866 nucleotides of DNA, taken from the sequence record AF039874.1; one strand, given 5' to 3'. This document shows, piece by piece, positions 1 to 866 of this stretch; the stretch's first letter is position 1, and the number at the start of each line of letters is the position of its first letter. This DNA comes from a phage. The position numbers and the translations under genes were made by a program. The notes under the pieces were generated by a model that saw only the letters and a list, made by a program, of their open reading frames with translations, searched no databases and had not been told where the DNA came from.

Positions 1-32
1 CTTCATGCCTGCAGGTCGACTCTAGAGGATCC
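1..32. other. Cloning-vector polylinker (pUC/M13mp-type multiple cloning site); not biological insert
   Basis: Directly visible restriction sites in canonical order: 5-10 is GCATGC minus one base (read has CATGCC, so a G is missing at the read start), CTGCAG (PstI) 9-14, GTCGAC (SalI) 15-20, TCTAGA (XbaI) 21-26, GGATCC (BamHI) 27-32. This matches the known pUC18/19 polylinker string aagcttgcatgcctgcaggtcgactctagaggatcc. Insert begins at the GATC of the BamHI site, consistent with a Sau3AI/BamHI-type junction. Confidence 0.92.
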
Positions 33-304
33 TTCATTACCACTAATACAGAATGTCCTTTAACCTTAATAAAGGTAGGATTAGTATTGTGGAAGTTAAT
101 GTATTGCTGGGTTAATTTAAATGCTTCTTGCCAAAGTTCTAGATTAAGAGGAACTTCACCATCTGCTTTCTTCCAGCCTTTCCTTTGCCAAGAGAACATC
201 CAGCTTTCCATACCATTTTTGCAATAAGCAGAATCAGTATAGATAACAATTGGGTCTATTATCTTTTTTAACTGACCAACGTAGAGCTGGGACAGCTTTA
301 GAAC
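28..304 (-). CDS. rnhA: Ribonuclease H, type 1 (RNase HI / RNH1 family): partial catalytic domain, C-terminal portion only. Truncated at the clone boundary, N-terminal half not identifiable.
   Basis: Minus-strand frame with codons starting at positions congruent to 1 mod 3 (e.g. 304-302, 235-233, 55-53) translates 304->50 as VLKLSQLYVGQLKKIIDPIVIYTDSAYCKNGMESWMFSWQRKGWKKADGEVPLNLELWQEAFKLTQQYINFHNTNPTFIKVKGHS. After a 1-nt frame slip near 47-49 it continues ISGNEG into the BamHI site. Family hallmarks present: the YTDS motif (Asp codon 235-233, the position of E. coli RNase HI Asp70 as I recall it), the W..W.(K/R)GWK.AD...V.N..LWQ block (cf. E. coli [26 protein letters not shown], recalled from memory), and VKGHSG..GNE before the final catalytic Asp, which would lie beyond the clone end. 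The symbol rnhA assumes a bacterial source; it would be RNH1 if eukaryotic. Frame is preceded by TAA at 307-305 and has no plausible start codon. Confidence 0.8.
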
Positions 305-463
305 TTATTGCAGTAAAAGATTTACGCCATTCAGTATAATCATGACCATTCATGCTCTTAGCGAGATTGAATGTTGAGTCCTGATTACAAGGTACAGAAA
401 CTACCGAAACTCCGTAAAGTTCTAAACCTTTAATATAAATATATCAGTAGCTTCATCCCACCC

Positions 464-866
464 NGCACCAAGGCAGCGGAATCCGATNCTAAAAGTTTTC
501 ATTACACCGTTTTTAATTAGTGAAAAAANACCCGGGTCAGAACTTTCANAGNTCNCACATCCGATTTCGAGACCCATTTCAGTAGGGTTAGGNTCAANAC
601 NCTTACCGATTGGCNACNATGATTCNTGCCCGAAAAGNAAAANCGGGTTTTCAGGTANTTAGTNANGNGCATTNANCGTTTTCCACNCANAANCAGGGAT
701 TACTCNCCNGCGCGNTNTTTTCAATTGGGGTACCGAACCCCGGGTTTTAAAAAACTTCCTTGGGTNCCCCCCAACAGATTTATTTTACNCCNCCAANTGA
801 NNGGGGGGGATTTAACTNTTACANCCNAANACCNCTGGNGCATTTTTANCCCCCAGAACAGTNGGG
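464..866. other. Low-quality read tail (ambiguous base calls); sequence here is unreliable
   Basis: First N at 464, N density rises steadily, with homopolymer runs (ccccccc 766-772, ggggggg 803-809) typical of a decaying Sanger trace. No reading frame survives here. Confidence 0.9.
727..866. other. Possible re-entry into vector (polylinker KpnI side and lacZ-alpha region), garbled by low quality
   Basis: ggtaccga at 729-736 resembles polylinker ggtaccgagctc. gttttaaaaaac (743-754) and tgggtncccccc (761-772) resemble vector cgttttacaacg and tgggaaaaccc. ccnctggng (831-839) and cccccagaacagtnggg (850-866) resemble ccagctggcg and cccttcccaacagttgcg of pUC lacZ-alpha, as recalled. Order is collinear but lengths do not match (read is shorter), so this is tentative. 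Confidence 0.3.

Follow-up and report, generated by a model that had tools for sequence, protein, structure and literature searches.

The insert in record AF039874.1 is very probably a ligation chimera of two distant fragments of the bacteriophage T5 genome, and as such an artefact of cloning rather than a feature of biology. We analysed the whole 866-nucleotide stretch of this record (hereafter the window), in which an RNase H gene appeared to be interrupted by stop codons. The N-terminal part of the RNase H domain is truly absent from the window, and the DNA that stands in its place belongs to another, intact T5 gene. A preliminary description of the same DNA had left open a spliceosomal intron, a decayed pseudogene, a chimeric or rearranged clone, and undetected base-call errors. 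It had recommended an alignment to the source genome, and it is this alignment to T5 that places the two halves of the insert at separate loci.

The read consists of vector DNA and two segments of the T5 genome

The window is a single-pass Sanger read from a shotgun clone in which DNA of Escherichia phage T5 had been inserted into a pUC-type plasmid vector (Table 1). This is evident from the polylinker at positions 1-31 in combination with 41 Ns, the first of them at position 464: Both indicate a single-pass read that runs out of the vector into the insert and decays away from the primer. Bases 4-31 of the polylinker (28 nt) are identical to the sequence of polylinker-bearing plasmids; in one of these plasmids, the corresponding stretch reads AAGCTTGCATGCCTGCAGGTCGACTCTAGAGGATCCCCGGGTACC. 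In window 1-10, the polylinker in the read is CTTCATGCC as compared to CTTGCATGCC in the vector, with a G lost at about position 3/4. Indel miscalls thus occur at both ends of the read.

The three independent T5 genome records used for comparison were NC_005859/AY543070, AY692264 (st0) and AY587007 (ATCC 11303-B5). The three records are mutually identical through both loci at every position where the read differs from them. An origin of these differences from strain polymorphisms was considered and is ruled out by this identity.

Table 1. Features of the window, with their coordinates and the evidence on which they are based.
Feature	Window	T5 (NC_005859)	Strand	Evidence
Cloning-vector polylinker, pUC/M13mp18/19 type (..CTTGCATGCCTGCAGGTCGACTCTAGAGGATC; ..GCATGCCTGCAGGTCGACTCTAGAGGATC)	1-31		plus	plasmid match
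Fragment of T5 rnh (RNase H, T5.091)	32-286	46468-46722	minus	identity to T5
Missing G private to the read (CTGGTA in T5, CTGTA in the read)	49-50		minus	three T5 records agree against the read
Extra C private to the read (GACCA in T5, GACCCA in the read)	254		minus	three T5 records agree against the read
Probable chimeric junction, AGCT at both parental T5 loci	285-288		none	comparison of the read with both loci
T5 head-maturation (prohead) protease T5.150 / pb11, codons 1-190	287-843	~103068-103634	minus	alignment
Read-private missing T (T5 TTATTATTAAAG, read TTATATTAAAG)	435-436		minus	three T5 records mutually identical here
3' end of T5.151 (pb10 / Hoc-like head decoration), very low-quality read	846-865		minus	alignment and annotation table

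Only an internal part of rnh is present

Window 32-288 aligns to positions 46468-46724 of NC_005859 with 0 substitutions and two single-base indels. The alignment lies within the rnh gene T5.091 (46412-46888), and the fragment retains two bases of codon 56 (the last two) at one end and the first base of codon 141 at the other. The window does not encode an intact RNase HI (PF00075): Of the four carboxylates of the T5 enzyme (D9, E49, D73 and D143) only D73, in the motif YTDS, is found in the fragment, and the other three lie outside. The intact T5 RNase H is a protein of 158 amino acids (MSVFHVYTDGACKSNPGPGAWGFIVYDDNDDRLGSKSGYSPKTTNNEMELTAIVEALRWSVKKDNRPIVIYTDSAY...) that matches positions 5-138 of the 141 positions of the Pfam RNase_H model (2e-32), and its gene has a complete, continuous reading frame in each of the three T5 genome records. 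The N-terminal segment for which a search upstream had been suggested does exist in this intact gene, as YTDGA (with D9) and TNNEMEL (with E49).

One of the T5 records deserves a comment with respect to rnh. In AY587007 (T5 ATCC 11303-B5), the gene is annotated as a 336-nt CDS (46332-46667) that begins at the internal Met of ..NNEMEL.. and therefore lacks the catalytic D9, whereas the DNA upstream is identical to that of the other T5 records, in which 477-489 nt are annotated. The start given in AY587007 is thus an annotation inconsistency and no sequence difference. In addition, at the position aligned to window ~131-133, AY587007 has GAACTTGGGCAAG as opposed to GAACTTTGGCAAG in NC_005859, AY692264 and the read, resulting in a Trp-to-Gly exchange in RNase H. 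This exchange is due either to strain variation or to a mistake in AY587007.

The four stop codons that had drawn attention to the window are all present in minus-strand frame 1, a TAA at 307-305, a TGA at 352-350 and TAG codons at 403-401 and 424-422, and so is the peptide MVMIILNGVNLLLQ reported for this frame. It is also correct that the N-terminal motifs of RNase H are absent upstream: None of the three minus-strand frames has an RNase H match between 305 and 445. All four stops lie within the T5 prohead protease gene, where they are out of frame and nothing unusual; they are no commoner than expected by chance for DNA of 40% GC.

Two aspects of the earlier reading have to be revised. The homology to RNase H had been taken to end at 305; it actually stops at window 286/287. 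Moreover, the peptide VLKLSQLYVGQLKKII over 304-255 had been read as part of RNase H. Downstream of the extra C at 254, rnh continues in frame 1 instead of frame 0, and extending frame 1 upstream past this position yields this peptide, which is nonsense, up to the TAA at 307-305. It was this additional base that led the earlier reader into the wrong frame between 304 and 255; the true RNase H frame upstream of 254 is frame 0 (..ALRWSVKKDNRP), as in T5. Similarly, the missing G at 50/49 converts KGHSGISGNE to KGHSVLVVMK. The frame-1 peptide downstream of 304 covers only positions 60-123 of the Pfam RNase_H model, and after frame correction the match extends over positions 51-130 of 141.

The DNA upstream of the RNase H fragment is the prohead protease gene

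Window 284-865 matches T5 103064-103658, a region that contains the protease gene T5.150/pb11 and the last bases of T5.151/pb10. The interval in which the N-terminal half of RNase H had been sought (window 296-445) corresponds to about codons 138-187 of the protease. There are 0 mismatches to the T5 protease gene in window 284-411, and errors and Ns pile up above 412. The low overall identity of the protease match (82%) is entirely due to this decay of the read above 412. The T5 protein, which includes ..SKAVPAQERN.., scores 5e-19 to Peptidase_S78 when intact, and the minus frame-0 piece of the window gives only a weak match to this family.

Read quality had been regarded as good in this part of the window. 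This holds for 284-411, where no difference from T5 is found, but not for 412-445, which contains three substitutions and one deletion. The deletion, a missing T at 436/435, shifts the protease from frame 1 to frame 0, with the substitutions nearby at 427, 417 and 412. At these three positions, the read has G or T for an A of T5, and at ~463-474 it reads CTTGGTGCNGGG as compared to CTAGATGCAGAG in T5. The errors in window 412-475 are systematic late-read miscalls that introduce false D to G and E to G changes in the protease.

The two coding sequences are fused in frame: The protease contributes CCA GCT CAA and rnh GAA GCT CTA, giving ..SKAVPA-LRWSVKKDNRP... As a result of this in-frame ligation, minus-strand frame 0 contains no stop between 443 and 237. 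The fusion of protease codons 1-190 to RNase H from codon 56 onwards is a 1-in-3 coincidence, and the fusion ORF in the read ends at 236-234 solely because of the extra C at 254. It was also considered whether frameshifts alone might hide the N-terminal half of RNase H in this long open frame, which leads into RNase H. This was rejected, as the peptide in frame 0 proved to be the T5 protease and does not match RNase H.

The two segments meet at an AGCT site

In each of the three T5 genome records, the rnh and protease segments have the same orientation and are separated by 56.3 kb. On the minus strand, the junction can be followed from CCCAGCTCAAG at the protease locus and AGAAGCTCTACG at the rnh locus to CCCAGCTCTACG in the read; the junction bases proper, in the sense (minus) direction, are ..GCTGTCCCAGCTCAAGAACG.. 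at the protease locus, ..ATTGTAGAAGCTCTACGTTGG.. at the rnh locus and ..GCTGTCCCAGCTCTACGTTGG.. in the read. The two parental sequences share 5 nt at this point, AGCTC at window 288-284, and diverge fully beyond. As a consequence of the shared bases, the breakpoint is formally ambiguous within 284-288. We infer that blunt ends were ligated here at AG^CT, with window 287 on one side and 286 on the other. The switch is abrupt, and the read has 0 mismatches from window 411 to 255, on both sides of the breakpoint. The AG at 288-287, one of the splice acceptors considered in the preliminary description, belongs to this ligation point.

The junction was searched for in natural genomes. Among 808 T5-like phage records, none covers at least 80% of window 27-460 (0/808), and a junction-spanning 76-mer is contiguous in 0 of 459 T5-like phage records.

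The boundary between vector and insert also falls on an AG^CT of T5: T5 has GAAG^CTGTAG at the position where the read has GAAG^GATCC. Accordingly, the vector-side end of rnh reads GGTAATGAAG followed by CTGTAGAT in T5, and GGTAATGAAG followed by GATCCTCTAGA in the window. Thus, all three visible fragment ends, the rnh and the protease side of the junction as well as the vector boundary, are blunt AG^CT half-sites of the AluI type. Over 10.8 kb of T5 sequence, there is one AGCT per 128 bp, and the chance that three independent ends fall at the cut position is ~5e-7. The ends at AG^CT half-sites therefore point to co-ligated restriction fragments, most plausibly generated by an AluI-like enzyme (AluI or of the CviJI type). 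Since the AGCT sites at window 202, 294 and 449 were left uncut, the digest was partial.

The vector/insert boundary (window 27-36) reads GGATCC+TTCATT and not GGATCCCC+insert. A library made with Sau3AI/BamHI sticky ends is ruled out, as the T5 sequence lacks a GATC at this boundary. A blunt SmaI site was considered as well; it would give GGATCCCC plus CTTC, and the read, which has GGATCCTTC, would need three lost C calls. In contrast, GGATC^CTTC is an exact fit to a filled-in BamHI end followed by the CT.. of a blunt AluI half-site, a combination that regenerates GGATCC. This suggests that the vector end is a filled-in BamHI site. A literature search on the construction of the T5 library retrieved nothing relevant from the collection searched.

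Discussion

Four observations come together in the window: Each of the two segments is collinear with the T5 reference and they are not adjacent there, the breakpoint between them is abrupt, the ends lie at AG^CT, and the junction is absent from natural genomes. We propose that two blunt-ended T5 restriction fragments, both cut at AG^CT in a partial digest with AluI or a CviJI-type enzyme, became attached to each other in vitro, either ahead of their insertion into the vector or in the same ligation. One of these fragments would be internal to rnh and the other would carry the prohead protease gene, and on the sense (minus) strand, codon 190 of the protease would thereby be joined to codon 56 of rnh. 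The first 55 codons of RNase H, with D9 in YTDGA and E49 in TNNEMEL, would not be part of the clone, hence the missing half. A chimeric or rearranged clone had been among the options of the preliminary description, and it is borne out by the finding that the DNA upstream of 287 is the T5 protease gene, 56.3 kb away from rnh.

Chimeras apart, the junction might reflect a true deletion of 56.3 kb from the T5 genome, brought about by microhomology-mediated illegitimate recombination between 5-nt direct repeats, with the resulting defective molecule being present in a lysate and then cloned. The two segments are indeed in the same orientation, and the breakpoint has a short direct repeat at both ends, 5 nt in length (GAGCT at T5 46720-46724 and 103064-103068), of which one copy is kept, as it is typical for such deletions. 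However, four of the five shared nucleotides are the AGCT site itself, which also marks the vector-proximal end; restriction ends account for all three breakpoints at once, including the rnh end at the vector. A deletion of this size would take out nearly half of the 121.75-kb T5 genome, and the junction is found in none of the 459-808 T5-like genomes searched. Replication and tail genes are among those located between rnh and the head genes, so that a phage with such a deletion could not propagate. Taken together, we regard a genomic deletion as improbable.

Even less credit can be given to a rearrangement after cloning, in which a larger plasmid insert would have suffered a deletion in E. 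coli. Toxicity of phage protease and nuclease genes can favour clones that have undergone rearrangement, and the microhomology at the junction would fit such an event as well. Yet, the precursor plasmid would have had to carry 56.6 kb or more of T5 DNA, far above the capacity of a pUC-type shotgun vector, and the coincidence with AG^CT would be left without explanation. Even jointly, the genomic deletion and the plasmid rearrangement retain only a small share of the probability, and the in vitro ligation of two restriction fragments is clearly the preferred explanation.

Base-call errors do occur in the read, with three private indels (at 254, 50/49 and 436/435) and several substitutions, and they explain the confusion of frames. 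They do not explain the missing half: If it were there in scrambled form, window 287-411 could not be 100% identical to another T5 gene without any similarity to rnh codons 1-55, and base-call errors as the sole cause are thus refuted by the alignment to the point of having virtually no probability left. The same negligible weight applies to a spliceosomal intron or a decayed pseudogene that would interrupt the RNase H gene; apart from the stops, only the presence of AG dinucleotides speaks for it, whereas the source is an E. coli bacteriophage and the upstream DNA is the intact, conserved coding sequence of the protease, 100% identical to T5. For an intron, there is no upstream exon with the N-terminal half, and for a pseudogene there is no remnant similarity to rnh codons 1-55, while the RNase H of 158 amino acids is intact in the three T5 records. 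An alternative genetic code and a eukaryotic or ciliate origin had come into consideration as well; both became moot once the DNA had been matched to T5.

For the use of the record, it follows that the read needs to be marked as a chimera with vector contamination (1-31), and that it should be trimmed or regarded as low quality beyond ~411. Neither a truncated RNase H nor an intron, an unusual genetic code or a rearrangement of T5 should be argued from this read. This is a matter of data hygiene only; there is no consequence for the biology of T5 and no biological novelty.

Each part of the insert corresponds to a well-defined T5 gene. Window 32-286 is the same as T5 rnh (T5.091 / rnhA, RNase HI family, PF00075), with 0 substitutions over codons 56-141; it differs in that the clone lacks codons 1-55 and 142-158 and in that the read has one C too many at 254 and one G too few at 50/49. 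Similarly, window 287-843 is the same as the gene of the T5 head maturation protease (T5.150 / pb11, Peptidase_S78, PF04586), exactly so over 287-411; here, the copy in the clone stops after codon 190 of 210 through the ligation, and the read becomes ever more erroneous above 412. As a whole, the insert resembles the chimeric (co-ligated) inserts of plasmid shotgun libraries, with the same abrupt join of distant collinear segments at the half-sites of the restriction enzyme that generated them and with a junction that is missing from every sequenced genome of the organism. There is no substantive difference between the usual chimeric shotgun inserts and the one studied here, the in-frame fusion being coincidental.
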